From contig CAWJZV010000008.1 in the NCBI GenBank assembly GCA_963847445.1, forward strand, positions 96,001 through 160,000: a stretch of 64,000 nt of DNA. The letters are read 5' to 3'. The notes under the pieces were generated by a model that searched no databases, was not told the origin of the DNA, and saw only the letters and a program-made list of their open reading frames with translations. Each line of letters opens with the position of its first letter. Position 1 is the stretch's first letter. The DNA comes from an uncultured delta proteobacterium. Lineage in GTDB: Bacteria; Desulfobacterota; Binatia; UBA9968. This document shows positions 7,738-49,080 of the stretch, one piece after another. Both the position numbers and the translations under genes were made by a program.

Positions 7738-7746
7738 ACGGCTAAC

Positions 7747-13002: not shown

Positions 13003-13043
13003 ACTCAACTGACTATGCAGGGCTGGCAAATTGACTGATACCT

Positions 13044-14401: not shown

Positions 14402-14424
14402 CCAAATTACAGGAGAACAGTAAC

Positions 14425-14700
14425 ATGCCAATAATTGATTCTTCTATTCCACCTATTCAGATCGACGAATATTGGTATGTTGTCCGAAAGACTGTGGAGG
14501 AAGTGTTTAACTGTAAGGACACCTCCGGTGTCGATAGGCTACGAACTGAAATACTTCGAAGCAAAGCGGATGAGCAGATATTGTTCTACCATGCTGAACC
14601 ATTAGACGTGGCAGCGGATCTTTCAGGCAAGTCTCCTGGAGAAGAGGAGATCAAAAAATACAATCAACTAGTTGAAAGGCATCGCAGATCGATACCATGA
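14425..14700 (+). CDS. Small helical protein, possible antitoxin (DUF3791-like partner)
   Basis: 91 aa with an AGGAG RBS, 23 bp after the DUF3990-like gene. Contains LFYHAEPLDVAADL. Function inferred from context. Confidence 0.65.
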   Translation: MPIIDSSIPPIQIDEYWYVVRKTVEEVFNCKDTSGVDRLRTEILRSKADEQILFYHAEPLDVAADLSGKSPGEEEIKKYNQLVERHRRSIP

Positions 14701-14738
14701 AGGTGTTCAGCAAGGAAAACCGAGTCGTAATAAGGAAA

Positions 14739-15713: not shown

Positions 15714-16041
15714 GCGTATACCTCGAAACTGGTTTGGTGATTATTAGCACTTGATACGGAGACATCCTTTTTGGCAACGTGTTCCGCTCGTTTCGACTAA
15801 TCCCATACCGCAAGTCCCACGGAGTACTCATCTCGTGATTCGTCATTGCCTAATGTGGTTTCAGGTTCTCTGTCTAGGCAAATCGCACGCACAAGAATTC
15901 CGAACGATTTTTCAACCTATCAGCCAGAAAATATACTAGATGCGTTGAAGATCATGCAAATATCAAAACCCCTAGAAGTGGCTTCCGGGGAAACTTCTTG
16001 TAAAGCAAGCGTAAATTTCTTTGGGAACTCGGGTTTAGTTT

Positions 16042-16854
16042 CTACTTCCGATCTTCCGGCTTGACGTATTTCACCGTGCCGCCGCCTTTTTGCGAGTGCA
16101 GGTAGCCTTCGACGTCGTTCAATGGATTGGTGTAATAGCGCAGGCGGTGTTGCACCAGGTCGTCGGCGCGCAGCGCCATGTCGAAGGGCAAATCTTTTTG
16201 CATGTAAGCGGCGATCTTAGCGTTCTCCAAGGTCGGGCCGTTGCGGCTGGCGAGTTCTTTCGCCAGGGTGTCGACGTAGCTGTCCAAGTCTTTTTCCGGC
16301 ACGACGTCGGAAACTAAACCGACGCGCTCGGCTTCGACGCCGGTCAGGTTTCTGCCGGTGAGCGAAATAAAGAAAGCTTTCTTGAACGGGATTCCCGCAT
16401 GAAATAGCGACGGTGTCGCGGTGGCGCCGTAGCTGCCGCGGATGACTTCGGGCATGCCGAACTTTGCCGTGTCGGAGCTGATGACGAGATCGTGACCGTT
16501 GATCATCGCCAGACCGCCGCCCAGGCACCAGCCGCGCACTTTGGCGACGGTGACTTGCGGAAGTCTACGCATGATGTCGACGATCTCGGCGACGCCGCCG
16601 AAGCCGCGGGTGCGGCGCCGGTTGTCCTGGCCGCGCATGTCGTAGAGATCGCGGCCCGAAGAGTAGGAGTCGCCGGCGCCGGCGGTGACGATGCAGCGAA
16701 TTTTGTCGTTGTTCGCCAGCTCGCGCAGGGTGGTCGCGATCTCGGCGAGCAGGGCGACGCTCAGGGCGTTTTTCTTTTCCGGCCGATTGAAGGTCAGCCA
16801 GGCGATGCCGATGTTTTCGTCGATGTTGGCGGTGATTTGTTTCAGGTCGGACAT
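16042..16854 (-). CDS. Enoyl-CoA hydratase/isomerase (crotonase) family protein
   Basis: LTFNRPEKKNAL, SSGRDL, GWCLGGG and FGMPE motifs. Confidence 0.92.
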   Translation of the reverse strand: MSDLKQITANIDENIGIAWLTFNRPEKKNALSVALLAEIATTLRELANNDKIRCIVTAGAGDSYSSGRDLYDMRGQDNRRRTRGFGGVAEIVDIMRRLPQVTVAKVRGWCLGGGLAMINGHDLVISSDTAKFGMPEVIRGSYGATATPSLFHAGIPFKKAFFISLTGRNLTGVEAERVGLVSDVVPEKDLDSYVDTLAKELASRNGPTLENAKIAAYMQKDLPFDMALRADDLVQHRLRYYTNPLNDVEGYLHSQKGGGTVKYVKPEDRK

Positions 16855-16933
16855 TTAACTTCTCCGTGGGTTTAGTTTCGTTCAAATCGTTCAATAAGTT
16901 CAAGCCGTTCAAATCGTCGGTCGAATGCTAAAC

Positions 16934-16997
16934 TGCCATTTCGAGATGAAGCCGAGAAATATTTTCGCATAGATCTCTCACTTCGTTCGAGATGACA
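16934..16997. repeat. REP-like imperfect inverted repeat
   Basis: TGCCATTTCGA...GAGAAAT pairs with AGATCTCTC...TCGAGATGACA. Intergenic. Confidence 0.55.
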
Positions 16998-17020
16998 GCA
17001 TTGGCAATGACGACTTTCTA

Positions 17021-18029
17021 TTAAGCGAACCGGTAAAAATTTTTGGCGTTGCCGGCGAGGATTTTTTGCTTGGTCTGGTCCGAGATGTCTTTGCGTTTGA
17101 CCACCTGGCTGACGCTGTGCGGCCACTCCATGTCCCAGTGGGGATAATCCGACGCGTACATCATGCACTCGTCGCCGAACTGTTCGATGACCAACGGCAG
17201 CGCCGACTCTTCGCCTTCGCAGGTGAAGTAGCAGCGGTGGTCTTTGATGTACTCGCTGGGGAGCATTTTGAGCGGCTCCATCTCGGCTTTTCTAATCAAA
17301 TATTTCTCGTCGAAGCGCTCCATCCAATAGGGCAGAAAGCCGACGCCGGCTTCGAGAAAGCCGACTTTGAGCTTGGGGAAACGGTCGAGCACGCCGTTGG
17401 AGATGACTCGAGACCACCGACAGCATCTGTTCGAACGGGTGCGAAGTCATGTGCACGCCGATGTATTTATGAAAACGGGTGTTGCCGACGGCGACTTGGG
17501 CGGTGGCGTGAAAGCCGATGGGCACGCCAAGGTCCTGCGCCGCGGCGTAGATCGGGTCGAACTGCGGCTGGCCCAAGTCGAGGCCTTGCTGCACGTAGGT
17601 CGGCATCATGACGCCGACGGCGCCTTTCTCGGTGACGGCGCGGCGGACTTCTTTCGCCGCTTCAGCCACGACTTGCGGCGCGATCACGGCGGCGTACTTG
17701 ACGCGACCGCCGCTTTGTTTGCAGAAATCGGCAGCCCAGTCGTTGTAGGCTTTGGCCAGTTCCACGGCGAGGTCGAGTTCGCGCACGAGTCCGATGGCCA
17801 GCGCGTTACTGGGATAGGCGACCGCGTCGCCGATCTTTTCGACGTCGAGGTCTTGGCAATACTCGGCCGGGTTGGCCGGCTTTCTGCCGGTGGTGTCATT
17901 CAAAAAAATGTCCCAACCGAAGGATGGAAAATACGGCCCGCTGCGGATGCGAAACTTTTCCGGCAGGTATTGTTTATAAGCCGCGCCGTCCAAGTGATGG
18001 GCGTCGGCGTCGATGATGGTGAACTCCAC
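17021..18029 (-). CDS. Amidohydrolase_2 family protein (frameshift near 17410)
   Basis: GTG start with GGAGG RBS. IIDADAH, LDRFPKLKVGFLEAG and YASDYPHWD motifs. Confidence 0.88.
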
Positions 18030-23427: not shown

Positions 23428-25165
23428 ATGGCACAAGCAGGGAACAATAATTGGGATCTCGAAGCCGACGTCATCGTCATCGGCTCAGGCGCGGCGGGCT
23501 TGCCGGCGGCGATCAAAGCCGTTGACAATGGCGCATCGGTGATCGTGGTCGAGGCGAATTACGACGTCGGCGGCCACGCGATTCTCAGCGGCGGCCATAT
23601 GGCCCTGGGCGGCGGCACCAGCGCGCAGAAGAAATATAATATTCCCGACTCGCCGGACACGGTGTTCTCCGATCTCACCGATTGGTCTATCGTTCAACCC
23701 AATGGCACGCCGGACTTTCGCTACAACGACCGGGCGGTGATGCGCGCCTTCGCCGATCACTGTGCCACGGCGTTCGAGTTTTTACTGGCCAATGGCGTCG
23801 AGTTCGCCGATAAGGCGCCGGACAATCAAGGCGCGTCAACCACCGGCAACTCGGCGCCGCGGGAAAATCATGCGATTTGGAGCAAAGGCGCGGGGCTGGA
23901 GAGCCCCAACGCGGCCAACGGCACCAGCGTGATCCGGCCACTGGAGGCGAGCGCGCGGGCCAAGGGCGTCAAGTTTTTGCTCAATTACAAAATGACCAGC
24001 CTGATTCGCGAGCCGTCGTCAGAGAAAAATCCCGGCCACGTGATCGGCATCGACGCGCAGTACAACCCGCATATCATGCCGGGCGCGACCGCGCCGCTAA
24101 AGAGTTTTCGCTCCGAAGGCAACATCGACAGCAGCAAACCGACGATGAAATTGCGCGCGCACAAGGCCGTCATCGTCGCCACCGGCGGCAGCACCAGCGA
24201 CGTAAATTTCCGCCGCATGTTCGATCCGCGCTTGACGCCGGAGTTTCAGGTTGGCGGCGAGCCGTACAGTTACCAAGACGCCAGCGGTGAACTCGCCGCC
24301 ATGGCCGTCGGCGCTTCGCTGTGGGGGTTGGTCCATCAGGCGCTGGAGAACGGCGCGACCATGCGCTCCCAGCGCGCCCTGGCGACCAAATATAACTACA
24401 CGACCTGGAAACTTGAGAGTCCGATCTTCCCGTTGGTGAAGTCAACGGGTTTCAACGTCAAAGACTGGCAGGATTTGATTCTCGTCAACCAAGTCGGCCA
24501 GCGGTTCTACGACGAGACCAAGGGCGATCCGCCGCACGGCAACCATGGACATGCAATATCCGGATTGCACGCCGAACGATTATCGCAACGCGGAAAACGT
24601 CAAGTACAATCCAACCCGATACAATTTTGTCAACGCGGCGTTGGCGATGAACGCATACTCCGAGCCGCCGGATTACTGTCCCGGGCCGCAGTGGGCGATC
24701 TTCGACGCCGACGCGGTGGAGCGCGAAGGCTGGAAGGTGGTGCCGCCCTACGTCGATCCCGATGGTTATTTTTTCTCCGGTAACACCCTCGGTGAACTCG
24801 CTGCCGCGATCAAGAATGAATATCAAGCCAAGCCGATGAGGGGGGAAGTTTTGCAAGCGACCGTCGAGCGTTACAACTCTTTCGTCGACGCGGGTGTCGA
24901 TGCCGACTTCGGCAAGCCCGCGCCCAAGTACAAAATCCAAAAGCCGCCGTTCTACGCCGCCTGGGGTACGGTGATCGTCCATGATACCCGCGCCGGTTTG
25001 CGCATCAACGCGCGCTGCCAAGTGGTCGACATGAGCGGGCAAGTGATTCCCGGACTTTACTGCGCCGGTGAATCGGCCGGCGGTTTCAATCAGCATGGCA
25101 TGGGCCGCTGCGTCACCCAGGGTTATATTTGCGGCAGCGACGCGGCGAAGCTGCCGCGACGTTAG
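23428..25165 (+). CDS. FAD_binding_2 flavoprotein (fumarate reductase/ketosteroid dehydrogenase-like; frameshift near 24550)
   Basis: DVIVIGSGAAG, VIVATGG and IPGLYCAGE motifs. Confidence 0.88.
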
Positions 25166-27588: not shown

Positions 27589-28653
27589 GTGATTACTCAT
27601 GGAGCGGGCGTTAAAATAACCGCTTTGGGCGCGCTCTTAGTGTCCGCAGTGCTCTCAGCCGATCGCGGTTTCGCCCAAGCGTCATTTTATCAGGGGAAAA
27701 CCATAACCGTCGTCGCCGGTACCGCGCCGGGAGGAATCGGCGATGGCCGAGTAAAGTCGCTGATTCCGTATCTGCGCAAATACATCCCGGGCAGTCCGGC
27801 GATCGTGGTCGAATACATGGACGGCGGCGGTGGTCGCCAGGTAGGCAACCATATGGCTCGCAACGCCCGGCCGGACGGGCTCACCATCGGCGCATTCAGC
27901 AGCAGCGTGATCTCACTGAATATTCTGCGCGAAAGCGGCGTGATGTACGACATCGATAAATTTTTCTACCTCGGCTCGCCGGAAAGCACCAGCCACCTGG
28001 TGTTCTATACCAGAAAGGAAGCGGGTCTGAGCAATTTGGAGAAACTCCGAGCCACATCAGGAGTCAGAGTCGGTGCTCGGCCGGTTGGGCACAGCGCCTA
28101 CGTCGCGGCCCGTTTATTTGCCTATTATCTCGGTTTAAAAGACAGCAAGTTCATCCCGGGCTACGCGGCTCCGGAGCTAGACGTTGCCCTGCTGCGCGGC
28201 GAGGTCGATGCCAGAGCGAACACCTCGGCGTCGGTCTGGCAGCGCAATCCCGATTGGCTAGAAAAAGGTTTGATGGATTTTCACGCCGCGTTGGAGGTTC
28301 CCAAGGGAATCAAGCCTCCCCGCTTCGGCCATATCCCTGAGATCGAGAGCTTCGCCAAATCTGAAAAAGAGATCAAGCTTCTCACCATGGCGCGAACCTT
28401 CAGACTGACGGGCTCGCCCTACGTCATGCCTCCGGGAACGCCTAAAGATCGCGTGGAGATTGTCCAAGAGGCGATGCGCAAGGCGCTTAAAGATGGCGAT
28501 TTTCAGCGCGAATACCGTAAGATCGTCGGTGAGGACGCCGATCCCCTGATGCCCGAGGAATTGGCCAAGGCCATTCGCGACACCCCACGGGACGCTGAAT
28601 TGATCGAGATGTTCAAAACCCTCTCGGGCCCCGCGCCGCTGCCGGCGCGCTAA
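27589..28653 (+). CDS. Bug/TctC-family substrate-binding protein
   Basis: FYQGKTITVV, ARPDGLTIG and PPGTPKDRV. GAGGAGG RBS precedes GTG 27589. Confidence 0.85.
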   Translation: MITHGAGVKITALGALLVSAVLSADRGFAQASFYQGKTITVVAGTAPGGIGDGRVKSLIPYLRKYIPGSPAIVVEYMDGGGGRQVGNHMARNARPDGLTIGAFSSSVISLNILRESGVMYDIDKFFYLGSPESTSHLVFYTRKEAGLSNLEKLRATSGVRVGARPVGHSAYVAARLFAYYLGLKDSKFIPGYAAPELDVALLRGEVDARANTSASVWQRNPDWLEKGLMDFHAALEVPKGIKPPRFGHIPEIESFAKSEKEIKLLTMARTFRLTGSPYVMPPGTPKDRVEIVQEAMRKALKDGDFQREYRKIVGEDADPLMPEELAKAIRDTPRDAELIEMFKTLSGPAPLPAR

Positions 28654-28975
28654 ACCCGCAAGTGAAGATTAGGAAGCAAATCTTTTTCCGCGAGCATATC
28701 GGCGCTTGGGCGCACGCTGGCGCCATTGAAATTGATCTGATCCCTCGATGCTTGTCTCGCATTGGCTGGCACTTCGACTTGAGTCGGTATTCACATCCCA
28801 GCGGTTTCAAGTTGACATAACGCGAACCTATCGAATACGGTTTGACCCACAGATGAGGATAGGTTGCCAGTCGGTTTTCTGAATTAGCTGCTCGCGAGTC
28901 TGAAACACCGGCTTGCATGGTCTGCGGCCCCGATTGCCGCTTGATCAGGAATTCACACCCCACGAGAGGTCGGTC

Positions 28976-31900
28976 ATGAAAAAGACAACGAAAGCCAAAC
29001 GATCCACCGCTGCCACACGGAAGCCCGCAACTCGCGCCGCCGCGGCCGTCGAGGTCGAACGACGAGTCTCGGCGCTCGACTGGAAGGAACTCGCGACCGG
29101 TTTGGGCGGCGCGACCCGCGGCACAGGCGGCATATCAGAGAACGACCTGAGGGATTACTTCGGCGCCGAGGAATTCGAGCGGCTTCAGCAGCTCGCCGGA
29201 TTCAGTCAGACCGTGCGGTCGCGCTCGGCGCCGCTCGGCAACGTGATCTTTCTCCACGGCATCACCGGCTCGGACCTGGGCGTTGCCGCCGGTTCGGGAG
29301 AGCCGGACGAAGTCTGGGTGAACTTTTTCCGCCTGATCAACGGCCGCATCGAACGCCTCAAGCTCGCCGCGGACGGCGCCAAGGAAGCGGACCGCACTTG
29401 GCGAGTCGTGCCGATGGGGGTGAATAAGCGCTACTACGCCCGCGCCGTGCTCGCCCTCGGCGGCCGCTGGAACGTCACGCCCTTCGCCTACGACTGGCGC
29501 AAAGACATCGACGACTCTTCGAACGAGCTCGCTAAGCTCATCCGCCGCGACTTTCAGGGCAAGCCCGTGCATCTCGTCGCCCACTCGATGGGCGGGCTGG
29601 TCTGCCGCAATTTTATCCGGCTGCACCAGGATCTTTGGGAGGCCATGAAAGACCCTGGGCTCGTGCGCGGCGGGCGCCTGATCATGCTCGGCACACCGAA
29701 CTACGGCTCGTTCGCCATCCCGCAGGTAATCACCGGGCAGGACAAGATGATCAGCCTGCTCGCCACGCTCGACGTGAGGCACGATCTGGGCGAACTCCTC
29801 GAGGTTACCAACTCGTTCGTCGGCAGTTACATGATGCTTCCGGCCCCGGCGAAGCTGACTCCCGCGCTCCAGAAGCTGTATCGCGGCGAAACCTGGGGTG
29901 AGAGCACAGGGCTGGTGTCGCAGCGCCACCTCGACCGCTCCTATCAGTTCCATCACGATCTCGAGGCTGCTGCGCCGACTATCGACCCGACGCGCATGAT
30001 CTACGTCGCAGGATGCCGGCAGGCGACACTGTCCGGGTTGAAGATCGCCAGCCGCGGCGACTTCGATTACGAGTTGACCTACGCCGGCGACGGGCGGGTG
30101 CCGCACGACCTCGGCCTGCTGGAGAACGTGCCGACCTACTACGTCGACGAAGCGCATGGCGATCTTGCGCGCAACGAATCGGTCATCGCCGCCGTCGATG
30201 AGTTGCTCGAAAGAGGCCAGACGGCGACGCTCGGGACACAGGTGCTGCGCGCGGTGAAACGCGCGGCGCCGACGATGCGCGACTACCGTACACCTGAGGA
30301 TAAGCAGCTTATCGAGGATCTCGGGCGGCTCGCGCGCAAGGCCGAGGCAACTCACCAGGCTGTTCGCGGCGCCGGTGCGCGCGCCGACGAGACCGAACGT
30401 GCCGCGCTGCGCGCCACCTTCACCGACGAAGAGGCGCGCTTCGCCGAAGACGCAATCGTCAAGGCTGCGCTCGGCGGCCGCGGCCGCCCGGCGCAGCAGA
30501 TAGCGGTGCAACCGATGTCGCCGGCGGTGCGCGCTCAGATCAAGCCAATCAACGTCACCCTGCTCAAGGGCGACATCACCGAGGTCGAGGCACCGCTTGT
30601 CGTCGTCGGCCATTACAAGGGCGTGCCGCCGACGCGCGCGGTCGGCGCCATCGACCATAAACTCGGCGGCTGGATCGAGCGTGCCGGGCGCCTGGGCATG
30701 ATCGGCGGGAACCTCGGCGAGACGTTCTTCGTGCCGAACGTCGCCAATGCGTTAAAGGCCGGAGGCGCGGTCCTCGCAGGCATGGGCGAGTTCGGCAAGT
30801 TCACGCGTGATGACCTGGTGCTCCTCATGTCGAACGTGACCATAGGCGTATCGGCTCTCGGCCTGAAGGGCTACGCCAGCGTGCTGATCGGTTCCGGTGA
30901 AGGCAACCTCGACCGCGAGAGCGCGCTCAAGGCTTTTCTCGAGGGCGTCGCTGCCGGCGCCGAGCGCTTCGAGAAGGAGTCCGACGGCAGACTGGCGGCG
31001 TCTCGGTCGCTGACGATCGTCGAGAAGTACGACGCCCCGTTCAAGAGCCTGGAAGAGCAGCTTCGGCGGCTGGCAGGACCCCAATCCTCAAGGGCGGGTA
31101 AAGAGCGGACAAGCGGCCGCAAGTCCGCGCGCCCGCAAGGCAAGGCGTCGCGCATCGACGAGGCGGAGGCGAACGCGCCGATCACGCTCACCGTCAAAAA
31201 GGGCGCGCGCTCGGCGGCCAAGCCGGCGCAGCGCGACAGAGCCGGGAAAAGGGCCGACGTTCCATCGAGCCTGGATGAAGTGCGGCTCACCGTCGAGCAG
31301 TTGAAGGAGGGCACGTTCCGCTTCTCGGCTCTCGCGGAGACGGCCGTCGTGCCGGTGCGCGAGGTCGAGATCAACGCGACATTCGCCAGGGGCGCCGCCG
31401 ACCGGTTGATGAGCTCGACGACGCGCGACGAGCAGATCAAGTTCGGCGAGCTGCTCTACACCTACCTGGTGCCGGAAGACTTTCACCGGATGATCGATAG
31501 CGGCAAACCGCTCAAGCTCATCCTCGACCGCAGCACCGCCTCGTATCCTTGGGAGATGGCATGCTTCCGCAGCGCGCAGAATCCGAATCGCGTCTCGAGC
31601 CTCGGCGTCGACCTGCGCGTGACACGCCAGTTCCGCACGCTGCTTTCGAGCGCGCCGGGCATGAAGCCGGTGCTCAACCGCAACCTCAAGGTGCTGATCA
31701 TCGCCGACCCTGCGCGGGAGCCGGACTACCAGCTACCGGGCGCGCGCCGCGAGGGACGCGAGGTGGCGAGCGTCTTCCGCAACTTCCCGGCGAAGCAGCA
31801 CGGGATCTTTATCGAGGTCGATGAACATATCGGCCCCGATCAATGCGACCCGGTCGAGATCCTGGCGCTGCTGCTCTCCGGAGCATTCGATATCGTGCAT

Positions 31901-32338
31901 TACGCCGGTCACGGCGGCTATGACAAGGACAACCCGGCCGGAAGCGGCTGGATCTTCGGCAAGGACTGCGTCCTGTCCGCGCGGGAGATCTTCCGCGCGC
32001 GCAAGGTGCCGCGGCTGGTGTTCGCCAACGCCTGCTTCTCGGCAGTCACGACCCAGGGGCGGGCACTGTCCGCCGACGAGCAGTCGAAAGGGCTCGCAAG
32101 CATCGCTCAGGCGTTCTTCGAGCGTGGCGTGAGCAACTACATCGGCAGCGGCTGGCCGGTCAATGACGACCAGGCGACGACGCTCGCGCGAACGTTCTAC
32201 GACGGCCTGCTGAAAGGAAAGCCAATCTGCGACGCTCTCAAGGCGGGGCGCGCGGAGATCGGCGGCTACGGCGATACCTGGGGTGCGTACCAGCACTATG
32301 GCAATCCGAACGACGTCGTGATCAAGGCCGACAAGTAG
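28976..32338 (+). CDS. Lipase/acyltransferase, macro-like and CHAT caspase-like protease multidomain protein
   Basis: LHGITGS, YDWRK, AHSMGG, GTPNYGS, GDGRVP and AHGDL (hydrolase). LLKGDI..VVVGHY and SVLIGSG (macro-like). HYAGHG, FANACFS, GWPVND and AYQHYG (CHAT). Confidence 0.88.
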   Translation: MKKTTKAKRSTAATRKPATRAAAAVEVERRVSALDWKELATGLGGATRGTGGISENDLRDYFGAEEFERLQQLAGFSQTVRSRSAPLGNVIFLHGITGSDLGVAAGSGEPDEVWVNFFRLINGRIERLKLAADGAKEADRTWRVVPMGVNKRYYARAVLALGGRWNVTPFAYDWRKDIDDSSNELAKLIRRDFQGKPVHLVAHSMGGLVCRNFIRLHQDLWEAMKDPGLVRGGRLIMLGTPNYGSFAIPQVITGQDKMISLLATLDVRHDLGELLEVTNSFVGSYMMLPAPAKLTPALQKLYRGETWGESTGLVSQRHLDRSYQFHHDLEAAAPTIDPTRMIYVAGCRQATLSGLKIASRGDFDYELTYAGDGRVPHDLGLLENVPTYYVDEAHGDLARNESVIAAVDELLERGQTATLGTQVLRAVKRAAPTMRDYRTPEDKQLIEDLGRLARKAEATHQAVRGAGARADETERAALRATFTDEEARFAEDAIVKAALGGRGRPAQQIAVQPMSPAVRAQIKPINVTLLKGDITEVEAPLVVVGHYKGVPPTRAVGAIDHKLGGWIERAGRLGMIGGNLGETFFVPNVANALKAGGAVLAGMGEFGKFTRDDLVLLMSNVTIGVSALGLKGYASVLIGSGEGNLDRESALKAFLEGVAAGAERFEKESDGRLAASRSLTIVEKYDAPFKSLEEQLRRLAGPQSSRAGKERTSGRKSARPQGKASRIDEAEANAPITLTVKKGARSAAKPAQRDRAGKRADVPSSLDEVRLTVEQLKEGTFRFSALAETAVVPVREVEINATFARGAADRLMSSTTRDEQIKFGELLYTYLVPEDFHRMIDSGKPLKLILDRSTASYPWEMACFRSAQNPNRVSSLGVDLRVTRQFRTLLSSAPGMKPVLNRNLKVLIIADPAREPDYQLPGARREGREVASVFRNFPAKQHGIFIEVDEHIGPDQCDPVEILALLLSGAFDIVHYAGHGGYDKDNPAGSGWIFGKDCVLSAREIFRARKVPRLVFANACFSAVTTQGRALSADEQSKGLASIAQAFFERGVSNYIGSGWPVNDDQATTLARTFYDGLLKGKPICDALKAGRAEIGGYGDTWGAYQHYGNPNDVVIKADK

Positions 32339-32544
32339 CGCGACGGCAGGTTGTCTAGAGCGATTATTGATCACCAGCTGATGCGTGAGAAGTAGAGACT
32401 CTGCGGCGACGGCTGATACGCCACCTGTCATTTTTCAGCATTTTTCAGGGTCAAGCTTTTCAATACAAGCCGTGCGCGTTGGCGCACGGGCCCGGGTGTG
32501 GGGCGCACCATATACGACCGCGTGATTTGCTACTCAGCGTGCGA

Positions 32545-33448
32545 CTATTTGAATGCGCCAATCCCGGGTGTTTTAACTTCGAGTTTGGCGAGGGCACCGC
32601 GTGTCGTGAGATACAGGGTGCGAAAGTCCGGTCCGCCGAAAGCGAGGTTGCGAACTATCTCCGGCATCCGGAGGATGCCGATGACCTCACCCGATGGAGC
32701 GATAACCCAGATGCCGCCGGAGCCGACGCAAAACACTCGACCTTTGGTGTCGACCTTCATGCCGTCGGGAACGCCGGGAGCCGCCGAGGACATATCACAG
32801 AACACGCGGTTGTTGCTCAGGATCCCGTCCGGGGCCACGTCGAACGCGCGGATGCGCCGATGATTACAAACCTCGCCACGCTCGCGCCTCCTGGAAGCAG
32901 CGCTCGTCGAGCCGGCTAATCGCGACGTACAGCACCGACTCATCGGGAGAGAACGCCAGCCCATTGGGGTACTCACACTCGTCGGTGGCCAGGTGCACGT
33001 GGCCCGTCGGATCGATGCGAAATACGCCGGAAAATCCGATCTCGCGCAGCTCTGCTGGAAGGCGCAGCCCGGGGTCGGTGAAAAAGATGGTGCCGTCGGA
33101 GCGGCACACCACATCGTTCGGTTTATTGAACCGTTTGCCTTGCCAGCGCTCGGCAATGGCCGTGACCGTGCCATCTGCCGCCATCCGGGTAATGCGCCGG
33201 TGATCGGCGCCTTCGCACATGATGAGACGGCCCTGGCGATCGAGCGTGCAGCCGTTGCCCTCGCCGGTATTTTCCCGCACTACGGTTATTGCACCGTTGG
33301 GGTCCCAGCGCAGCAGCCGGTTCCCCTCTAGATCGACAAAGGTAACATAACCCTCGGCATGCCAGAGCGGCCCTTCGGCGCGGCCCCAGCCAGTGGCAAG
33401 CTGAGTCGGTTCTGTGGATGCGAATATGTCGGACAGGTTCTCAGCCAT
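32545..33448 (-). CDS. SMP-30/gluconolactonase family protein (frameshift near 32870)
   Basis: EGPLW, FNKPND, PNGLAFSPDE and PDGMKVD motifs. Confidence 0.9.
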
Positions 33449-33940: not shown

Positions 33941-35066
33941 ATGACAAAGGCATTATTAACATTTCTCCTTACCCTCTCCATCAGCGGCAGCAGCTTTGCT
34001 GCGGATGCTAAGCCGTCGTGGCGCATCGAATGGGACAAGACCGTGGCGGCAGCGGAGAAGGAGGGCACGGTTTCGATTTACATATTCGAAGCCGGGCCGC
34101 TCACCGAAGAAACCGTGCTTGCCTTCGAGCGCGCCTATCCGAAGATTAAAGTTAACCAATTGCGCGGCCGCGGCAACGATCTCGGTCCGCGCATCGTCGC
34201 CGAGCGGCGCGCCGGCAAATATCTGGTCGATCTCTTCGCCGGTGGCAAAGGGACCGCGTTGGGCACCCTTTACGTCGGCAAACTGCTGGATCCAATCAAG
34301 CCGCTTTTGCTGCTTCCGGATGTCCTGGATGAAACCGAAATGGTGGCGCCGCGAACATAAATACGTCGATCCGGAGAATAAATATATTTTCGCTTACATC
34401 GGCAACGCCGGCGGTGTCGAGATCAATTACAATTCTACTTCGGTCAACCCCAAGGAGTTTACATCCTATTGGGATCTGACCCAGCCCAAGTGGAAAGGCA
34501 AAATCGCCGCCACCGACCCGCGTTCCCGCGGCATGGACAACCCGGTGCTGTTTTTCTACTACCATGCCAAACTTGGACCCGAGTTCATTCGCAAACTTTA
34601 CGGCGACATGGAAGTCGCGATCGCGCGCGACTATCGGCAGCCGGTGGATTGGCTGGCATCTGGAAGGTACGCCCTCTGTATCCCCTGTGTTTCGGACGAA
34701 ATGGACAAGGCGATGGATCAAGGTCTGCCGGTGGGGCAAATTCTCCGGCTTAAGGAAGGCGGCACCCTGAGTTCTTCCGGTGGGACGCTGACGTTGCTGC
34801 AAAATGCGCCCCATCCCAATGCGGCGAAAGTATTCGTCAACTGGCTGTTGTCGCGGGAAGGACAAACCGTGGTGCAAAAAGGCCGCAAGGGGCGCACGCG
34901 CACCGCGTCCAATTCGCTGCGAATCGATATTGCCAAGAACGATCTGCCGGAAGAAGTTCAACGCCGAGAGGGCGTCGACTACTTCGATGCCGACGATGAT
35001 AACTTCGCCGACCGCCGACCGGCGGACAAGTTGTTCAATGAAATTTTTGGCAAGACGAGTAAATAA
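33941..35066 (+). CDS. Fe/polyamine-type extracellular solute-binding protein (frameshift near 34335)
   Basis: AAAEKEG, DLTQPKWKGKI and APHPNAAKVFVNWLLSREGQ motifs. Confidence 0.85.
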
Positions 35067-35090
35067 ACCGCGAGCGAAACTCGGAATAAC

Positions 35091-35200
35091 TCTCGCAAAG
35101 GCGCCAAGCTCGCAAAGTTCGGAACATTACGGTGAAAATAAATCGTAAGACTTTTTTATCCTCTCCGTGTGAACTTCGCGCCTTTGCGCCTTTGCGGGAG
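35091..35200. repeat. 9-nt periodic inverted-repeat element
   Basis: CGCAAAGGCGCCAAGCTCGCAAAG pairs with CTTCGCGCCTTTGCGCCTTTGCG. Confidence 0.65.
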
Positions 35201-35239
35201 AAATATCCGATTCCGGTAAATTACATTTGGGAGAATGCC

Positions 35240-36247
35240 ATGACCAAGATCGTCGGGCGAAGTGGGTTACTCACATTGGTTCTCGCGCTGCTGGTGTTCC
35301 CATCGCAAGGCGTGGCGCAGGACAAGCCGCTGAAAAAAATCTATTGGGGCGTGTCGACATTGTCGCCGACCTTGTGGATCCCTTGGATCGCCAAGGAAGC
35401 GAAGATTTTTGACAAGAACGGCCTCGATGTCGAAGCAGTTTTGCTCAATGGCTCGGGGCGGACTTCGCAGGCCATGCTCTCGGGCAGTCTGTTCGCGGCG
35501 TCCGTCGCGCTGCCGCAGGTTATGTTAGCGGACTTGACCGGCGCCGATCTGGTCAACGTCGCCCACGGCATCGGCGTGCAGGCGAGCCGTCTGATGGTGC
35601 GGCCGGAGATTCGCAAGGTCGAAGATCTCAAGGGCAAGCGCATTGGTATTTCAAGTTTGGGTTCCGCCGGTGATCTATTGTTCGGTTACGTGCTGCGCAA
35701 ATATGGCATCGACACTACCCGCGATGTCATTTGGTTGGCCGTCGGCAACACCGCGGAGCGGCTGCAGGCATTGATGGCCGGTACGGTCGATGCGGCGGAC
35801 ATGACTTACCCCGCCGACGTTGAGGCGGAGCGCAAAGGCTTTCGCCCCTTGCTGGATGCGCGCAAAGAAATTGTCTATCCGACCGCATCGGTGGTGACGC
35901 GGCGTAAGACCATTCGCGAAGAGCGCGACACGGTGATGCGCTTCGTGCGCTCGTTTGTCGAAGGCATCGCCTATCTCAAGCAGAACAAGGAATTCAGCAA
36001 AAAAGTCCTGACCAAATACATGCGCACGACCGATGCGGAATATCTCGAAGGTTCCTACAACATGTTCCGGGACGATTTTATTTCCGTGCCCTATCCGATC
36101 ACCAAAAATCTCGAGGCGATCTATGAGATCGCGGCGTTTCGCCGCCCGGAGATTCGCACGCACAAACCCGAGGAGTTCGTCGACCCAAGCTTTGTCGCCG
36201 AGCTAGAGAAGAGCGGTTTCATCAAAAAGCTTTATGAGGGGAAGTAG
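35240..36247 (+). CDS. NMT1/SsuA-type ABC substrate-binding protein
   Basis: WIAKEAKIFDKNGLDVE, DLKGKRIG and ELEKSGFI. Signal peptide. Confidence 0.87.
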   Translation: MTKIVGRSGLLTLVLALLVFPSQGVAQDKPLKKIYWGVSTLSPTLWIPWIAKEAKIFDKNGLDVEAVLLNGSGRTSQAMLSGSLFAASVALPQVMLADLTGADLVNVAHGIGVQASRLMVRPEIRKVEDLKGKRIGISSLGSAGDLLFGYVLRKYGIDTTRDVIWLAVGNTAERLQALMAGTVDAADMTYPADVEAERKGFRPLLDARKEIVYPTASVVTRRKTIREERDTVMRFVRSFVEGIAYLKQNKEFSKKVLTKYMRTTDAEYLEGSYNMFRDDFISVPYPITKNLEAIYEIAAFRRPEIRTHKPEEFVDPSFVAELEKSGFIKKLYEGK

Positions 36248-36259
36248 GAGGGGAATGGC

Positions 36260-36640
36260 CGCATAGAACGCATAGAACGCAAAAGTTGGATAGGATCATT
36301 CACCACGAAGTGTCCGTGAGCTTGCGCGCCTATAGAGCATGAAAATGGTTGGCTTTCCCAGAACATGCCCCCTCCTCGATTCGGCGCACGCGGGAATCGG
36401 TTTGTTCTGCGCCGAATGCTGGATACCCACTTTCGCGGTATGACGGAACCCAGGTGCCCTTTCATTTTGAAGACCATCCCTACATGTAGTATGTAAGAGG
36501 ACGAAGAGCACGAAGTTCGGAAGAAGATTTGAACCGCAAAGAGCGCAACAAAACGTAAGAGTAAATCCCAACGTAGGGCGCAGCATGCTGCGCCCTTTGT
36601 CAATTCGAACCTTCGTGTCCTTCGTGCCTTCGTGGTGAAA
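36260..36640. repeat. Cluster of nested short repeats and a GTAG-type palindrome
   Basis: GCATAGAAC twice. CACCACGAAG and GCACGAAG pair with CTTCGTG three times. Palindrome AGGGCGCAGCATGCTGCGCCCT at 36575-36596, starting within GTAG. Confidence 0.6.
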
Positions 36641-36683
36641 AATCTGCTTCTATAACAGCCTACAAAAACTTCTAGGGTGCCAT

Positions 36684-37748
36684 TCAAGCGCCCTTGCGGC
36701 CGGTTTCCTTCAGTAGCTTGTCCCAGCGCTCGAGTTCTTTTTCGTATTTGTCCAGCGGCAGGTCGCGTTCGGGGCGCCATTTTTTGAAGCCGTAGTTTTT
36801 GGCGCCGTTGCCGTAGTGATATTTCTCTAGGATGCCTTGGCCTTCGGGGCCGAGCAGGTAGTCGGCGAGCAGCAACGCGGCGTGGGGATGGGGCGGTTGC
36901 GCGGCGATGGCGACGCCGCCGACGTTGGTCGGCACCACATCCATGGCGACCCATTCCACCGGCGCGCCTTTTTGCTGGGCGACGATGACATGGTTGCGAA
37001 AGATCGCCGCGCCGGCGAGGATTTCGCCCGATGCGATGAGATCGAGCAAGGCCGGCGGAATGATCGTGTGCAGGCTGATATCCTGGCCCTTCAATTTTTT
37101 CACCAGCTCCGGACCGTGGGTTTTTAGAATTCCTGCGATGGTTTTGTTACTGGTATCGTCGAGGGTGAGGCCCATTCTGCCCTTGAGAGCGGGATGGAGC
37201 AGTCCTTGGTAGTTTTTTGGCACGGCGTCTTTGGGCAGCAGGTTCTTGTTATAGCCGAAGCCGATGTAGGACTCGCGCGCGGTGCCCCAGAAGTATAGTC
37301 CGCGTTCGCCCTTGACCTTGGCGTCCTCGGGATAGGAGGCAAAATAAGGCGAGTGATAAGGCCGTAGCAGAAAAGCCTCGCGCTGGAACATTAAGTTGGA
37401 TTCGGTGGTTTCGATGGTGTCGACGATGGCCCGTTTGGCCTTGGCTTCCTCGACCATGCGGTTGGTGATCTCGCCGCCGTTGGTGCGGTAAGCTTCGATT
37501 TTGACGCCGGCATATTTTGTCTCGAAGGCCTTGATCATGGCCTTGTAGGAGTCGCCGGCGAGGGACGTGTACCAGGTCGCTTTCCCTTCGGTCTTCGCGC
37601 CGGCGTAGAGCATCGCTTCGCGGTCTTTGCCGTTGTAGGTGACCAGCTCGGAGGCGGTCTGCGGCTTGCGCGGCTGAGCGTCGAGTTCGCCGGGCAATAG
37701 CACCGAATCGAGCGCTAGGACTGATAGGACGAATAATAAGACAAGCAT
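36684..37748 (-). CDS. Extracellular solute-binding protein, tandem paralog 1
   Basis: GAKTEGKATWYTS and PPHPHAALL. Very similar to both neighbours. Confidence 0.88.
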   Translation of the reverse strand: MLVLLFVLSVLALDSVLLPGELDAQPRKPQTASELVTYNGKDREAMLYAGAKTEGKATWYTSLAGDSYKAMIKAFETKYAGVKIEAYRTNGGEITNRMVEEAKAKRAIVDTIETTESNLMFQREAFLLRPYHSPYFASYPEDAKVKGERGLYFWGTARESYIGFGYNKNLLPKDAVPKNYQGLLHPALKGRMGLTLDDTSNKTIAGILKTHGPELVKKLKGQDISLHTIIPPALLDLIASGEILAGAAIFRNHVIVAQQKGAPVEWVAMDVVPTNVGGVAIAAQPPHPHAALLLADYLLGPEGQGILEKYHYGNGAKNYGFKKWRPERDLPLDKYEKELERWDKLLKETGRKGA

Positions 37749-37811
37749 CGTTGTGGTTCTCCTGCAAGACTCTTATCGTGCGCCGGCTCCGCTGACAAGC
37801 CGAGATTACTT

Positions 37812-38864
37812 CTATGCGCCGCGGCGGCTGATCTCTTTCAGCAGCTTTTCCCAGCGCTCCAGCTCCTTTTCGTACTTGTCGGTAGTGATGCCATGGTCGG
37901 GGCGCCATTTGTTGAAACCGAGTTTCTTCGCCGCGCTGCCATATTCATATTTTTCCAAGACCGCTTGTCCTTCACTGCCGAGGAGATAATCGGCCAGCAG
38001 CAAAGCGCCGTGCGGGTGCGGTGGTTGCACGGCGATGGCGGCGCCGCCGACATTGGTCGGCACGATGTCCATGGGTACCCATTCTACCGGCGCGCCTTTG
38101 CTGATCGCGTTCAATGTGTGGTTGCGAAAGATGCCGGGCGACGCCAGCACTTCACCGGAAGCGATCAATTCCAACAGCGCCGGCGGGATGATTGTATGCA
38201 GGGCGATTTCTTGCACCTTTAGTTTTTTGACAAACTCTTGGCCCTTGGTGCGCAGCATGGCGCCGATGACTTTATAGGCGGGATCGCTGACCGACACGCC
38301 CATGCGGCCTTTGAGCTCTGGATGGAGCAGACCGTCATAGTTTTTCGGCACGGCGCTTTTCGACAGGAGCTTCTTGTTGTAAGCAAAACCGATATAAGAC
38401 TCCCGCGCGATGCCCCAGAAATATAATCCGCGCTCGCTTTTTTCCTTGGCGTCCTCCGGATAATTGGCGAAGTGCGGTGAGTGATAGGGACGCAAGAGAA
38501 AAGCGTCGCGCATGAACATCAAGTTGCCTTCGGTGGTTTCGACGGCATCGACGATGTAACGCTTGGCCTTCGACTCCTCCATCATGCGCACGGTCATGTC
38601 GGAGCCGGAGACGCGGTAGGCATCGAGCTTGACACCGGGATACCTGGCTTCAAAGGCTTTGGCCATGCCTTTATACGAGTCGCCGGAAAGCGACGTGTAC
38701 CAGGTGACTTTGCCTTCGCTCTTGGCGCCGGCGTAGAGCAGGGCTTCGCGGTCTTTGCCGTTGTAAGTGACGAGCTCGGAGATAGTCTGCGGCTTGCGTT
38801 GGGCGAGCAGGTCGTTGGCGAAGAGGATCGATCCGACCGATAAGACGAATATTAGGAAGTGCAT
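37812..38864 (-). CDS. Extracellular solute-binding protein, tandem paralog 2
   Basis: GAKSEGKVTWYTS and PPHPHGALL. Confidence 0.88.
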   Translation of the reverse strand: MHFLIFVLSVGSILFANDLLAQRKPQTISELVTYNGKDREALLYAGAKSEGKVTWYTSLSGDSYKGMAKAFEARYPGVKLDAYRVSGSDMTVRMMEESKAKRYIVDAVETTEGNLMFMRDAFLLRPYHSPHFANYPEDAKEKSERGLYFWGIARESYIGFAYNKKLLSKSAVPKNYDGLLHPELKGRMGVSVSDPAYKVIGAMLRTKGQEFVKKLKVQEIALHTIIPPALLELIASGEVLASPGIFRNHTLNAISKGAPVEWVPMDIVPTNVGGAAIAVQPPHPHGALLLADYLLGSEGQAVLEKYEYGSAAKKLGFNKWRPDHGITTDKYEKELERWEKLLKEISRRGA

Positions 38865-38886
38865 CGCGATAGGCTCCTTTGCTGCG

Positions 38887-39045
38887 TTAGTGTTGGCTGA
38901 TTTCTCTAGCGAGTTTACCCCACTTTAAGCTGTCTTTCTCATAGTCTTCCGACGATCGACCTTGGTCTTGGTACCATCTTTTGAAGCCGTAGTCTGTTGC
39001 CGGTTGGCCGTAGTGAAACTTATCGAGAATCTTCGGCGCATCGGC
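38887..39045 (-). pseudogene. 3' remnant of a fourth solute-binding protein paralog
   Basis: KILDKFHYGQPATDYGFKRWY...YEKDSLKWGKLAREISQH matches the C-termini of the flanking paralogs. Confidence 0.75.
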
Positions 39046-39107
39046 AAGCAGGATAGGAAGGATGGACCAAAACCAGAGAGTGCATCGCGGAAGTCTCCTC
39101 TGCTGCG

Positions 39108-40157
39108 TCAACGTTGAGTGATTTCCTTGGCGAGCTTTTCCCACTTCTCGCTATCTTTCTCAAATTGTTCGAGGGAGCGGCCGAAGCCGGGATGCCAACG
39201 TTTGAACGGCAGATTGCTGGACGGATGACCGTATTGAAACTTCTCCAAGACCTTGCGCGCTTCGGCGCCGAGCAGAAAGTCGACAAACAGCGTCGCGGCG
39301 TGCGGGTGCGGCGGCTGGGCGCTGAGGCTGACGCATCCCGAGTTGGTCGGCACCAGCTCCATCGGCACCCAGCTCGCCGGCGAGCCGCGCTCGGCCGAGA
39401 CCATGGCGTGATTTCTGTAAATATGAAACGACGCGCCGAGCTCGCCTGACGCCATCAGATCCACCAGCGCGGCGCTGCTGACGGTGTAAATGCGAATCTG
39501 CTGCGCTTTGAGTTTTTTGACGAAGGCTTCGCCCTTAAGTTTAATCATGGCGCCGATCATGCGCGCTGAACTTTCATTGAGCGTGATGCCCAGTTTCCCT
39601 TTCAACTGCGGATGGAGCAGGCCATCGAAACCTTTGGGCACAGCATCGGCAGGCACCTGATCCTTGCTAAAACCGAAGCCCATGTACGATTCGCGAAAGA
39701 TCGTCCAGAAGGTTAGACCGGCATCGGCCTTCTCCTTGGCGTCGCTTGGGTAGGCGGCGAGCAGCGGCGAATTGTACGGCCGGGTGAGGCCGTAGGCCTT
39801 CGACACCATGGTGAAATCGTAGGTGGTTTCGAGCGCATCCATGGTCGGCCGGCGCGCCTTGGTTTCCTCCGACATGCGCGTGACCAGATCGCTGCCGCCG
39901 GCGCGAAACGCTTCGACGCGCACGCCCGGATATTTAGTTTCGAAGGCTCGCGCCAGCGTCTTGTACGAGTCGCCCGCCAGCGAGGTGTACCAGGTGATCA
40001 CGCCTTCGCTCTTGGCGCCGGCATAGAGCAGCTGCTCGCGGTCCGCGCCCATGTAGGTGGAGATTTCCGACACGGTGGCGGGCTTGCGCGGCTGGGCGAA
40101 GAGTTGATTGGCGAAAAGCAGCGAAAAGACTACTAGACCGGATATCGCATGCAACAT
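39108..40157 (-). CDS. Extracellular solute-binding protein, tandem paralog 3
   Basis: GAKSEGVITWYTS and PPHPHAATL. AGGAG RBS precedes ATG 40157. Confidence 0.88.
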   Translation of the reverse strand: MLHAISGLVVFSLLFANQLFAQPRKPATVSEISTYMGADREQLLYAGAKSEGVITWYTSLAGDSYKTLARAFETKYPGVRVEAFRAGGSDLVTRMSEETKARRPTMDALETTYDFTMVSKAYGLTRPYNSPLLAAYPSDAKEKADAGLTFWTIFRESYMGFGFSKDQVPADAVPKGFDGLLHPQLKGKLGITLNESSARMIGAMIKLKGEAFVKKLKAQQIRIYTVSSAALVDLMASGELGASFHIYRNHAMVSAERGSPASWVPMELVPTNSGCVSLSAQPPHPHAATLFVDFLLGAEARKVLEKFQYGHPSSNLPFKRWHPGFGRSLEQFEKDSEKWEKLAKEITQR

Positions 40158-40393
40158 GATGGTGATCTCCTGTGCCTTTGCTGGCCGGTGGGGCTGGCAA
40201 CGCGTATCTCTTCCGCCCGGATAGCATGGCGCATCGAAGCGAGTCAATGCGCAGGCGATCCTTCTTCCCAAAAGGGGGCGATCACCAACTTACCCGAATG
40301 GGGCTTGTGAGAAGTTTTCGTAGTTGTTATCGCTCTGACCGGATTGAGGAGCAGGAACGGTTAAGAAAAACGACCAACTCGAGGAGGAGTTTT

Positions 40394-49052: not shown

Positions 49053-49080
49053 GCTACTCCACTGGGCTGCTCCGGGTCGA

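Follow-up and report, generated by a model that had tools for sequence, protein, structure and literature searches.

To our knowledge, caspase-like proteolytic cascades are known in bacteria from very few systems, namely SAVED-CHAT/PCaspase, the caspase of type IV Thoeris, the activators of gasdermins, and Craspase. CHAT proteases stay inactive until a signal arrives. In the type III-B CRISPR-CBASS system of Haliangium ochraceum, SAVED-CHAT activated by cyclic triadenylate (cA3) is reported to cleave and activate PCaspase, which degrades many proteins (bioRxiv 10.1101/2023.06.23.546230). Borvo is described as a single-gene CHAT-protease anti-phage system that is proposed to kill infected cells (bioRxiv 10.1101/2024.10.26.620412), and the Macro domain of the type II Thoeris effector is reported to bind histidine-linked ADP-ribose (His-ADPR) (bioRxiv 10.1101/2024.10.24.620036, 10.64898/2025.12.03.692087). 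Here we describe a gene (positions 28976 to 32338, plus strand) that joins a lipase-like module, a macro-like domain, and a CHAT protease in one protein. It lies in a 64,000-nucleotide stretch of DNA, referred to below as the window, from an uncultured delta proteobacterium (Desulfobacterota, Binatia, UBA9968; GenBank assembly GCA_963847445.1, contig CAWJZV010000008.1, positions 96,001 to 160,000). The predicted action of this protein is most like that of a SAVED-CHAT/PCaspase-type cascade, but by the defining tests of that family it falls outside it. We judge the chances to be about even that the protein is a soluble cytoplasmic effector belonging to a widespread bacterial conflict system of the abortive-infection or programmed-cell-death type, with the CHAT domain possibly starting a cascade.

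The locus contains a single long open reading frame (ORF) in the ORF listing (28913 to 32338, plus strand). Homologues share the start at ATG 28976, which lies 6 nt downstream of the sequence GAGAGG, and this start gives a protein of 1,120 amino acids (1,120 codons plus the stop codon), the intact frame that a first-pass annotation made from the sequence alone had described. The protein comprises an alpha/beta hydrolase of the LCAT/LPLA2 type, a macro-fold domain of the type found at the N terminus of M17 aminopeptidases, and a CHAT protease, and all three Pfam domain matches exceed their curated cut-offs. The first-pass annotation had recognized this three-part architecture together with five motifs, AHSMGG, GDGRVP, AHGDL, HYAGHG, and NAC, each of which occurs once and at the place given for it. 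The residues proposed to be catalytic (S204, D372, H394, H979, and C1020) were invariant in 107 of 107 aligned homologues with identities of 47 to 95%. The nearest relative, locus L001, lies on a contig of a metagenome-assembled genome (MAG) that is also labelled "uncultured delta proteobacterium" and is syntenic with the window. Compared with this orthologue, the ratio of nonsynonymous to synonymous divergence (dN/dS) was 0.216 for the whole gene and, by module, 0.135 (lipase), 0.145 (macro-like domain), and 0.158 (CHAT domain), and the folded modules are under purifying selection.

A structural model of the whole protein (mean predicted local distance difference test score [pLDDT], 83.9; predicted template modelling score [pTM], 0.53) consists of confident domains joined by low-confidence stretches at residues 1 to 18, 510 to 520, 703 to 731, and 745 to 764. 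A simple hydropathy scan, which is not a signal-peptide predictor, found no hydrophobic N terminus and no segment resembling a transmembrane helix (maximum 19-residue Kyte-Doolittle mean, 1.52), in agreement with the earlier statement that the protein lacks a signal peptide. The N-terminal region (residues 1 to 84; 28976 to 29227, plus strand) begins with a basic disordered tail (residues 1 to 18; pLDDT of <50), which ranges from 0 to 73 amino acids in length across the family, and continues with helices at residues 20 to 83. A scan of the protein against NCBIfam returned nothing useful (best E value, 0.058), and a scan for promoters and terminators around the gene returned nothing above chance.

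The alpha/beta-hydrolase module occupies residues 85 to 420 (29228 to 30235, plus strand). The Pfam family LCAT (PF02450) matched residues 166 to 289 (E value, 3.1e-8; 33.7 bits against a cut-off of 21), although only positions 86 to 203 of the 392 in the profile were covered. Direct phmmer comparison with the PDB gave only marginal matches to LPLA2 and LCAT (E values of 0.11 to 0.86), and a profile built from the family (alignment A2) did better, matching LPLA2 (4x90) with an E value of 5.8e-5. The modelled fold aligned with LPLA2 over about 396 columns, nearly the whole of the 377-residue protein, with a TM-score of 0.67 to 0.68, and the same fold search returned LCAT and the type VI secretion system (T6SS) phospholipase Tle4 (4r1d). 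The proposed nucleophile Ser204 (29585 to 29587) is in the GxSxG elbow within AHSMGG (from residue 202; 29579 to 29596), and Asp372 (30089 to 30091) and His394 (30155 to 30157) are in GDGRVP (from residue 371; 30086 to 30103) and AHGDL (from residue 393; 30152 to 30166), respectively, all on the plus strand. The invariance of these three residues in all 107 homologues supports the Ser-Asp-His triad that had been proposed for them. Among 149 more distant cluster representatives, counting only aligned residues, Asp was present in 82 of 82, His in 78 of 82, and Ser in 61 of 71; at the Ser204 position, eight others have Gly, which may reflect one-residue alignment slips. The module thus shares the triad, the fold, and an above-cut-off Pfam match with LPLA2 (PLA2G15) and LCAT; unlike those enzymes, with which it is 17 to 18% identical, it is bacterial, is predicted to be cytoplasmic, and is fused to regulatory and protease modules. 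As a phospholipase, the module would attack the membrane of its own cell.

The middle domain (residues 521 to 700; 30536 to 31075, plus strand), which includes a GDIT motif at residues 532 to 535, was matched by Pfam Peptidase_M17_N (PF02789) at residues 543 to 667 (E value, 1.6e-7; 31.7 bits against a cut-off of 23.4; profile positions 1 to 124 of 129). PF02789 is listed as a member of the Macro clan, CL0223 (PMC6500376). The canonical Macro family (PF01661) gave no match at an E value of ≤1 in the Pfam scan of the protein. A model of this domain made from window positions 30518 to 31105 with the family alignment was confident (pLDDT, 92.3; pTM, 0.88) and had 368 matches in the PDB at E values of ≤1e-3, led by the N-terminal domains of M17 leucyl aminopeptidases (LAPs) and by macro domains. 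The best of these were the LAP N-domains 8pz0 (E value, 5.5e-10; TM-score, 0.73) and 3h8f (TM-score, 0.75), followed by macroH2A1.1, the Venezuelan equine encephalitis virus (VEEV) macro domain with ADP-ribose, Af1521, YmdB, and MacroD2 (TM-scores of 0.64 to 0.72). The earlier assignment of a macro-like fold, for which a structure prediction had been recommended, is therefore upheld by that prediction. By sequence, a family profile (alignment A5) matched only M17 aminopeptidases in the PDB (3jru; E value, 1.3e-5), and the LAP/PepA N-domain is nearest to the middle domain in both sequence (3jru) and fold (8pz0). It is followed here by a CHAT protease and not by an M17 metallopeptidase domain. 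The roles of this domain in LAPs, which are oligomer contacts and, in PepA, DNA binding, need not apply.

The macro fold raises the idea of an ADP-ribose sensor, which the macro fold itself, the GDIT motif, and the SIR2 genes found next to some relatives weakly support. ADP-ribose-binding macro domains are described as having a conserved aspartate that contacts the adenine N6 (PMC6500376). The Asp of GDIT (D533 in the window protein), whose equivalence to the macro aspartate is by likeness of motif and not by superposition, is nearly invariant in close relatives and is present in 64 of 135 aligned representatives. This variability, the closer sequence relationship to aminopeptidase N-domains, and the scarcity of NAD-processing partners, which are missing from most loci, speak against a sensor of ADP-ribose. 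Glycine-rich motifs were also considered as evidence of ADP-ribose binding and were rejected, since aminopeptidase N-domains have counterparts that align with them. We know of no M17 aminopeptidase N-domain that binds ADP-ribose.

The remainder of the protein (residues 768 to 1120; 31277 to 32335, plus strand) is made up of a beta/alpha region followed by the CHAT domain, which Pfam CHAT (PF12770) matched at residues 824 to 1094 (E value, 2.5e-23; 83.4 bits against a cut-off of 24). The His/Cys dyad that had been proposed for this domain is likewise preserved: His979 (31910 to 31912, in HYAGHG, from residue 975; 31898 to 31915) and Cys1020 (32033 to 32035, in NAC, from residue 1018; 32027 to 32035), both on the plus strand, were invariant in the 107 close homologues and were present in 107 of 108 and 105 of 107 distant representatives, respectively. 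Foldseek comparison of the C-terminal module returned Csx29/TPR-CHAT, separase, the SAVED-CHAT structure 8tl0, and DdvA. On these grounds, the CHAT domain is predicted to be a protease of clan CD with a caspase-like fold.

Two connectors separate the three modules. A helical connector (residues 421 to 520; 30236 to 30535, plus strand), which in the model ends in a disordered stretch at residues 510 to 520, is 75 to 101 amino acids long in the family and on average 33% identical to the window copy. Between the macro-like and CHAT modules is a variable linker (residues 701 to 767; 31076 to 31276, plus strand) rich in Lys and Arg, which make up 24% of the window copy and 21% of the family average. 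The basic linker seen in the first-pass annotation is thus confirmed, and it is modelled with low confidence. The linker ranges from 35 to 67 amino acids in length, has a mean identity to the window copy of 19%, and has diverged from its L001 counterpart at a nearly neutral rate (dN/dS, 0.85). It nevertheless holds a short strand with a semiconserved basic tail (residues 736 to 745), in which position 736 is Leu, Ile, or Val in 103 of 107 homologues and positions 741, 742, and 745 are Lys or Arg in 58, 80, and 69 of the 107.

The protein belongs to a large family. A word-seeded search recovered 862 full-length relatives at E values of ≤1e-3 among 8,000 scored candidates; the best 120 were 884 to 1,160 amino acids long and 45 to 94% identical, with most covering 96 to 100% of the query and most carrying the same three Pfam domains. 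The middle-domain profile (alignment A5, 36 sequences) recovered 2,261 representatives of clusters at 50% identity at E values of ≤1e-3, including 946 at ≤1e-10 and 237 at ≤1e-30. Pfam domains were assigned to 83 of the best 150 representatives, 47 of which were picked for noncanonical length. In 45 of these 47, a CHAT domain followed the macro-like domain; of the other 36, 10 were long and contained a CHAT domain, and the rest were short or ended just past the domain, many of them perhaps being fragments. The part in front of the macro-like domain varied: it was absent in L053 and L056 (574 to 580 amino acids) and consisted in other proteins of an LCAT-like hydrolase, a Metallophos domain (P0178), an nSTAND1 NTPase (P0194), or DUF7362 plus DUF7379 (P0239), the latter of which shows alpha/beta-hydrolase-like matches. 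Several proteins had front regions of 200 to 400 residues without a Pfam family, and P0248 carried an additional PLDc_2 domain at its C terminus. A look-up in the ESM Atlas agreed with this picture, returning clusters with CHAT, LCAT, and M17_N domains as well as larger forms with DUF7379. Since the front part varies and the CHAT domain follows the macro-like domain, the constant unit is the macro-like domain plus CHAT, with the lipase as one of several exchangeable front modules. Such a swappable module, which emerged from the survey of homologue architectures that the first-pass annotation had recommended, fits a cargo or effector under protease control. One relative, L031, has a 2,091-amino-acid ORF (7063 to 13338) in which the lipase, macro-like, and CHAT modules are preceded by an N-terminal extension of about 980 residues without a Pfam family.

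A scan of one genome per species identified 273 relatives, from which 62 loci were kept and the neighbours within 10 kb were clustered. The only neighbour cluster common to several phyla was a protein of about 280 amino acids encoded immediately upstream in the same orientation. This caspase-family protein (Peptidase_C14; E values of 1e-23 to 1e-35) has yeast metacaspase-1 as its nearest solved relative (E value, 4.3e-26), and its His and Cys do not vary in any of 17 sequences. Hidden Markov model (HMM) searches of six-frame translations found the metacaspase in 21 of the 62 loci, always upstream and in the orientation of the main gene, with a distance of no more than 300 nt in 19 of them; six loci with under 1 kb of sequence on the upstream side are unassessable, so that the share is 21 of 56. 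The metacaspase is farther off in L052 and L054 (2.7 and 2.0 kb, respectively), and in the partner region of L052 (6421 to 9870), a Nitrospira MAG, a gene for a TPR-S plus patatin phospholipase separates it from the main gene. In Hymenobacter sp. 15J16-1T3B (L037), which is an isolate, the caspase domain is the C-terminal part of a 936-amino-acid ORF (6978 to 9785) that starts with a peptidoglycan amidase domain (Amidase_2). Two further loci (L019 and L028) contained a clostripain (Peptidase_C11) in the metacaspase position, also upstream and on the same strand. This recurring upstream protease of clan CD suggests that the CHAT domain may start a proteolytic cascade, comparable to that of SAVED-CHAT and PCaspase.

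L001 and L002, the two nearest relatives of the window locus, share the metacaspase and main-gene pair and no other neighbour, as expected of a two-gene cassette. The identities of the two proteins covary closely (Mantel r of 0.97 for 12 pairs; 0 of 2,000 permutations), a pattern that can also come from shared ancestry alone. A second type of neighbour was a SIR2-like gene, present beside the main gene at 9 of the 62 loci; in eight of these it lay 146 to 297 nt downstream on the same strand. The SIR2 neighbour in L011 is a ThsA-like SIR2 plus SLOG protein. Six of the nine loci represent one Pyrinomonadaceae subclade (32 to 35% identical), in which a gene for an nSTAND1-WD40 protein then follows. 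More distantly, a 28%-identical homologue (WP_168302769.1) on plasmid p1 of Rhizobium leguminosarum GLR17 is followed by a SIR2 plus pYEATS gene and an endonuclease gene, and a homologue on an Azotobacter plasmid lies among Fic, methyltransferase, recombinase, and insertion sequence genes. No CRISPR or CBASS genes were seen in the neighbourhoods scanned. Neither gasdermins nor TIR genes were found among the neighbours scanned, a set that did not extend to every neighbour of every locus. There were also no secretion-system, PAAR, VgrG, Rhs, or conserved small immunity-like genes among the neighbours clustered or scanned, and no metabolic neighbour conserved across phyla among those clustered.

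The window itself has no such partner: HMMs for metacaspase, SIR2, and clostripain had no match in a six-frame translation of the 64 kb. The earlier statement that the gene lacks a partner thus holds within the window and does not extend to all relatives, and the description of the protein as self-contained does not hold for the family in general, in which a metacaspase is present at 21 of 56 loci, a clostripain at two more, and a metacaspase at both of the loci nearest to the window. The flanks of the window locus are 91 to 96% identical to L001 and the gene itself is 87% identical, with identities per 200 bases of 72 to 96% in the gene and 85 to 98% in the flanks. A 1-kb segment of L001 (blastn breakpoints at 8942 and 9965), containing a metacaspase gene (Peptidase_C14; E value, 3.8e-26) and a GC-rich hairpin, corresponds in the window to about 22 bases at 28916 to 28938. 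The hairpin is a GC-rich inverted repeat (about 9914 to 9965) between the metacaspase stop codon and the start of the main gene, where it may serve as an attenuator or terminator. In an unrooted FastTree phylogeny of 53 main proteins (built without ten loci that lack a long ORF; the very long branch of the L031 protein, which was cut by eye from its 2,091-amino-acid ORF, is to be ignored), the window protein groups with L001 and then with L002. Partner presence requires at least eight changes on this tree and is found in all three large clades. Because L001 and L002 both carry the metacaspase, the lineage of the window most likely lost its partner, although an unrooted count cannot prove the direction of change.

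The GC content is 64 to 67% across the gene (28500 to 32500) and 55 to 59% in the flanks, and this, together with the faster divergence, hints at a foreign origin or at faster evolution. The difference in identity between the gene body and the flanks is modest, and allele replacement was considered as a possible source of it. Synonymous divergence from L001 is 0.047 over codons 1 to 84 (28976 to 29227) compared with 0.33 to 0.58 elsewhere in the gene, so that recombination may have had a breakpoint close to where the metacaspase is missing. The region is rich in insertions and deletions between these close relatives: a 2.3-kb segment of L001 (5104 to 7436) encoding a solute-binding protein and an alpha/beta hydrolase is absent from the window at 27408/27409, and a 2.8-kb segment (13348 to 16170) encoding an AT3 plus SGNH acyltransferase is absent at 32338 to 32502.

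A mechanism that would accommodate these observations treats the macro-like domain and CHAT as a switch whose outputs are the front module fused to it and, at loci that have one, the clan CD protease encoded upstream. A trigger would act on the macro-like domain or on oligomerization, and the CHAT protease would turn on. It would then cut linkers rich in Lys and Arg, in its own chain, in a partner zymogen, or in both, setting free the phospholipase and, where present, the metacaspase. In the window protein, the phospholipase would be the sole output and, after loss of the partner, the only executioner, damaging the membrane of the cell that produces it. The lipase could be released by a cut or be activated by assembly in an uncut chain, either being compatible with the proposed scheme.

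In comparison with SAVED-CHAT/PCaspase as described for H. ochraceum, the proteins are alike in having a regulatory domain N-terminal to CHAT, in the separate Peptidase_C14 gene at the locus in 21 of 56 relatives, and in the fold of the CHAT domain, which matches the activated filament 8tl0 (E value, 1.2e-5). They differ in that no SAVED domain is present here, the PADLOC match to SAVED_CHAT being confined to residues 973 to 1090 (E value, 1.8e-4); the regulatory domain is instead of the M17-N/macro type, and a phospholipase is fused in front of it. In addition, the scanned neighbourhoods lack CRISPR and CBASS genes, and the window lacks a caspase. Craspase (gRAMP/Cas7-11 with the tetratricopeptide repeat [TPR]-CHAT protein Csx29) is the system whose structures best match the C-terminal module (8eex, 7zoq, and 8d9f; E values of 2e-9 to 1.5e-8) and shares the logic of a protease kept inactive until a signal, but there is no TPR region, CRISPR effector, or Csx30-like substrate gene here, and RNA-guided activation is impossible. 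The best PADLOC match was to BovA (E value, 4.1e-6), a model that we take to represent Borvo. Like Borvo, the protein is a large stand-alone CHAT protein, but the match covers only profile positions 526 to 661 of 711, the catalytic region of CHAT, and the rest of BovA is unmatched; neither a lipase nor a macro-like module is known to us from Borvo. Type II Thoeris, as far as it has been described, resembles the protein in fusing a macro-fold domain to a cell-killing module, a role that is only predicted here, and a SIR2 or SIR2 plus SLOG gene lies beside 9 of 62 relatives, with a SEFIR/TIR gene 13 kb away in the window. The macro-fold domain here is, however, of the M17-N subtype and not PF01661, with variation at the position of the presumed adenine-contacting Asp; no TIR gene is adjacent in the window; and the output would be a protease and a lipase rather than a membrane pore. 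Bacterial gasdermin systems differ from these loci in that no gasdermin family was found among the neighbours covered by the partial scan.

Several observations weigh against assigning the protein to a conflict system. PADLOC returned only weak partial matches in the CHAT region, so the family is not a recognized defence system, and a search of a phage collection gave no match to it. The gene is surrounded in the window by transport and metabolic genes, 33 of the 56 assessable loci have no clan CD protease upstream, and partnerless loci mostly have no recognizable defence neighbour, their immediate neighbours being metabolic, transport, or uncharacterized genes. The purifying selection spans the whole divergence from L001 and does not thereby show that the gene was useful after its partner was lost. 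The neighbour ORFs were called by a longest-ORF rule and scanned in part against Pfam, and the loci come mostly from MAG contigs, for which the taxonomy is approximate. Literature searches, which reached few subscription journals, found no paper on a protein combining an LCAT or lipase domain, a macro or M17_N domain, and CHAT.

The partnerless state of the window locus can be read in two other ways. In a strict form of the model from the first-pass annotation, the protein could be self-contained, its macro-like domain acting as the sensor and a self-cut in cis or in trans freeing an autoinhibited lipase with no partner involved, and this would suit the window and the 33 of 56 assessable loci without an adjacent second protease. 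It would also suit the flexible low-confidence connectors (510 to 520 and 703 to 764) that flank the macro-like domain, the Lys/Arg-rich second connector with its semiconserved basic motif, the swapping of the N-terminal module like a cargo, and the purifying selection on folded domains in a partnerless lineage. We nevertheless consider this account unlikely: the cleavage site and the CHAT specificity that it needs are hypothetical here, oligomerization could equally activate the lipase without a cut, and the partner occurs in all three major clades and in the nearest relatives of the window, so that the partnerless copies may be secondary. Loss of the metacaspase could instead have left a gene that no longer has a role and has not yet decayed. 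Several neighbouring genes look frameshifted, which implies that the region, or its assembly, tolerates broken genes, and the partner is missing; but the 3,360-base frame is open with all of the catalytic residues intact, dN/dS is 0.14 to 0.16 in the folded domains, and many independent lineages keep the gene without a partner, all of which makes such a remnant improbable.

Two further accounts would place the protein outside programmed cell death altogether. It could be a housekeeping enzyme that takes part in the turnover of lipids or proteins, with coincidental neighbourhood patterns, as the metabolic and transport flanks in the window (including two other alpha/beta hydrolases), the unremarkable neighbours in many relatives, and the naming of some homologues as "pimeloyl-ACP methyl ester carboxylesterase" would allow. 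The first-pass annotation had held that a consistent location in housekeeping lipid-metabolism operons would count against a protease-lipase module; the loci of the relatives are not such operons, so this objection does not arise, and no metabolic neighbour is conserved across phyla. The gene tree conflicts with the taxonomy labels of the MAGs, the GC content is 65 to 67% compared with 55 to 59% in the flanks, divergence is faster in the gene than around it (87% versus 91 to 96% identity to L001), the N-terminal modules can be exchanged, and proteases or SIR2 proteins serve as partners, leaving the housekeeping account very improbable. The match to the T6SS phospholipase Tle4, the presence of distant homologues on plasmids, and the juxtaposition of a small-molecule-binding fold with a clan CD protease could alternatively point to an exported or contact-delivered antibacterial toxin, in which a Tle-like phospholipase would be joined to CHAT as an autoprocessing protease that a small molecule of the target cell turns on, comparable to the small-molecule-triggered autoprocessing by the cysteine protease domains of large multidomain toxins. 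The simple scan found no signal peptide or hydrophobic segment, the neighbours clustered or scanned included no secretion-system, PAAR, VgrG, Rhs, or small immunity-like gene, and the recurring partners (metacaspase, clostripain, and SIR2) are of an intracellular type, and we give the toxin the lowest probability of all the readings considered here. The preferred reading of a cytoplasmic effector can also be extended to the family as a whole, tentatively and with more doubt than confidence. The macro-like domain plus CHAT would then be a new and widespread signal-controlled protease switch in the immunity or programmed cell death of bacteria that operates without CRISPR or CBASS and drives exchangeable effectors (phospholipase, phosphoesterase, phospholipase D [PLD], or STAND), forming a caspase-like two-step cascade with a metacaspase or clostripain, with the macro-like domain reading a signal derived from a nucleotide, for example a product of NAD+ breakdown, and so linking the switch to the adjacent SIR2 genes.

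The window contains other features that are separate from the CHAT gene. Several genes appear split or truncated (23428 to 25165, plus strand; 32545 to 33448, 49387 to 51615, and 52415 to 52900, minus strand), including an FAD_binding_2 gene in two overlapping frames, pieces of an acyl-CoA dehydrogenase, a CoA-transferase fragment, and an SGL gluconolactonase in two pieces for which L001 has an intact 300-amino-acid ORF (16210 to 17112, minus strand). These are either pseudogenes or assembly indel errors; the 3.4-kb CHAT gene is intact. A 324-amino-acid protein encoded at 14742 to 15713 (minus strand), 13 kb from the CHAT gene, has a SEFIR/TIR_2 domain at residues 169 to 248 (E values of 1.2e-10 and 2.1e-8), and its best PDB match is the bacterial SEFIR domain protein 5y8e (E value, 4e-15). 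Metabolic genes separate it from the CHAT gene, a DUF3990 gene (13835 to 14398, plus strand) adjoins it, and it may, we presume, be a single-gene defence gene of the SEFIR type. Genes for paralogous periplasmic solute-binding proteins (SBP_bac and NMT1) are unusually numerous, with several in tandem and with internal blastn matches (33996 to 40271, 48051 to 49133, and 58111 to 59133). Near the left end are genes for a FitA-like ribbon-helix-helix antitoxin (937 to 1362, minus strand) and a protein with an rve integrase core (2636 to 3880, minus strand), and there may be a mobile element in this area. A tRNA scan found none in the window, which therefore has no signature of a tRNA-linked island.

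If the function of the protein proves to be ordinary, the analysis still provides a corrected annotation for genes, numbering in the thousands, that currently go by "CHAT domain-containing protein" or by "pimeloyl-ACP methyl ester carboxylesterase." L001 and the window form a natural pair with and without the metacaspase partner, which makes the role of a cascade directly testable. Should the protein act as proposed, the family would be a large and phylogenetically broad addition to the bacterial caspase-like cascades, with a different regulatory domain, a fused membrane-attacking enzyme, and a recurring second protease, and the M17-N branch of the macro fold would gain a role outside aminopeptidases.

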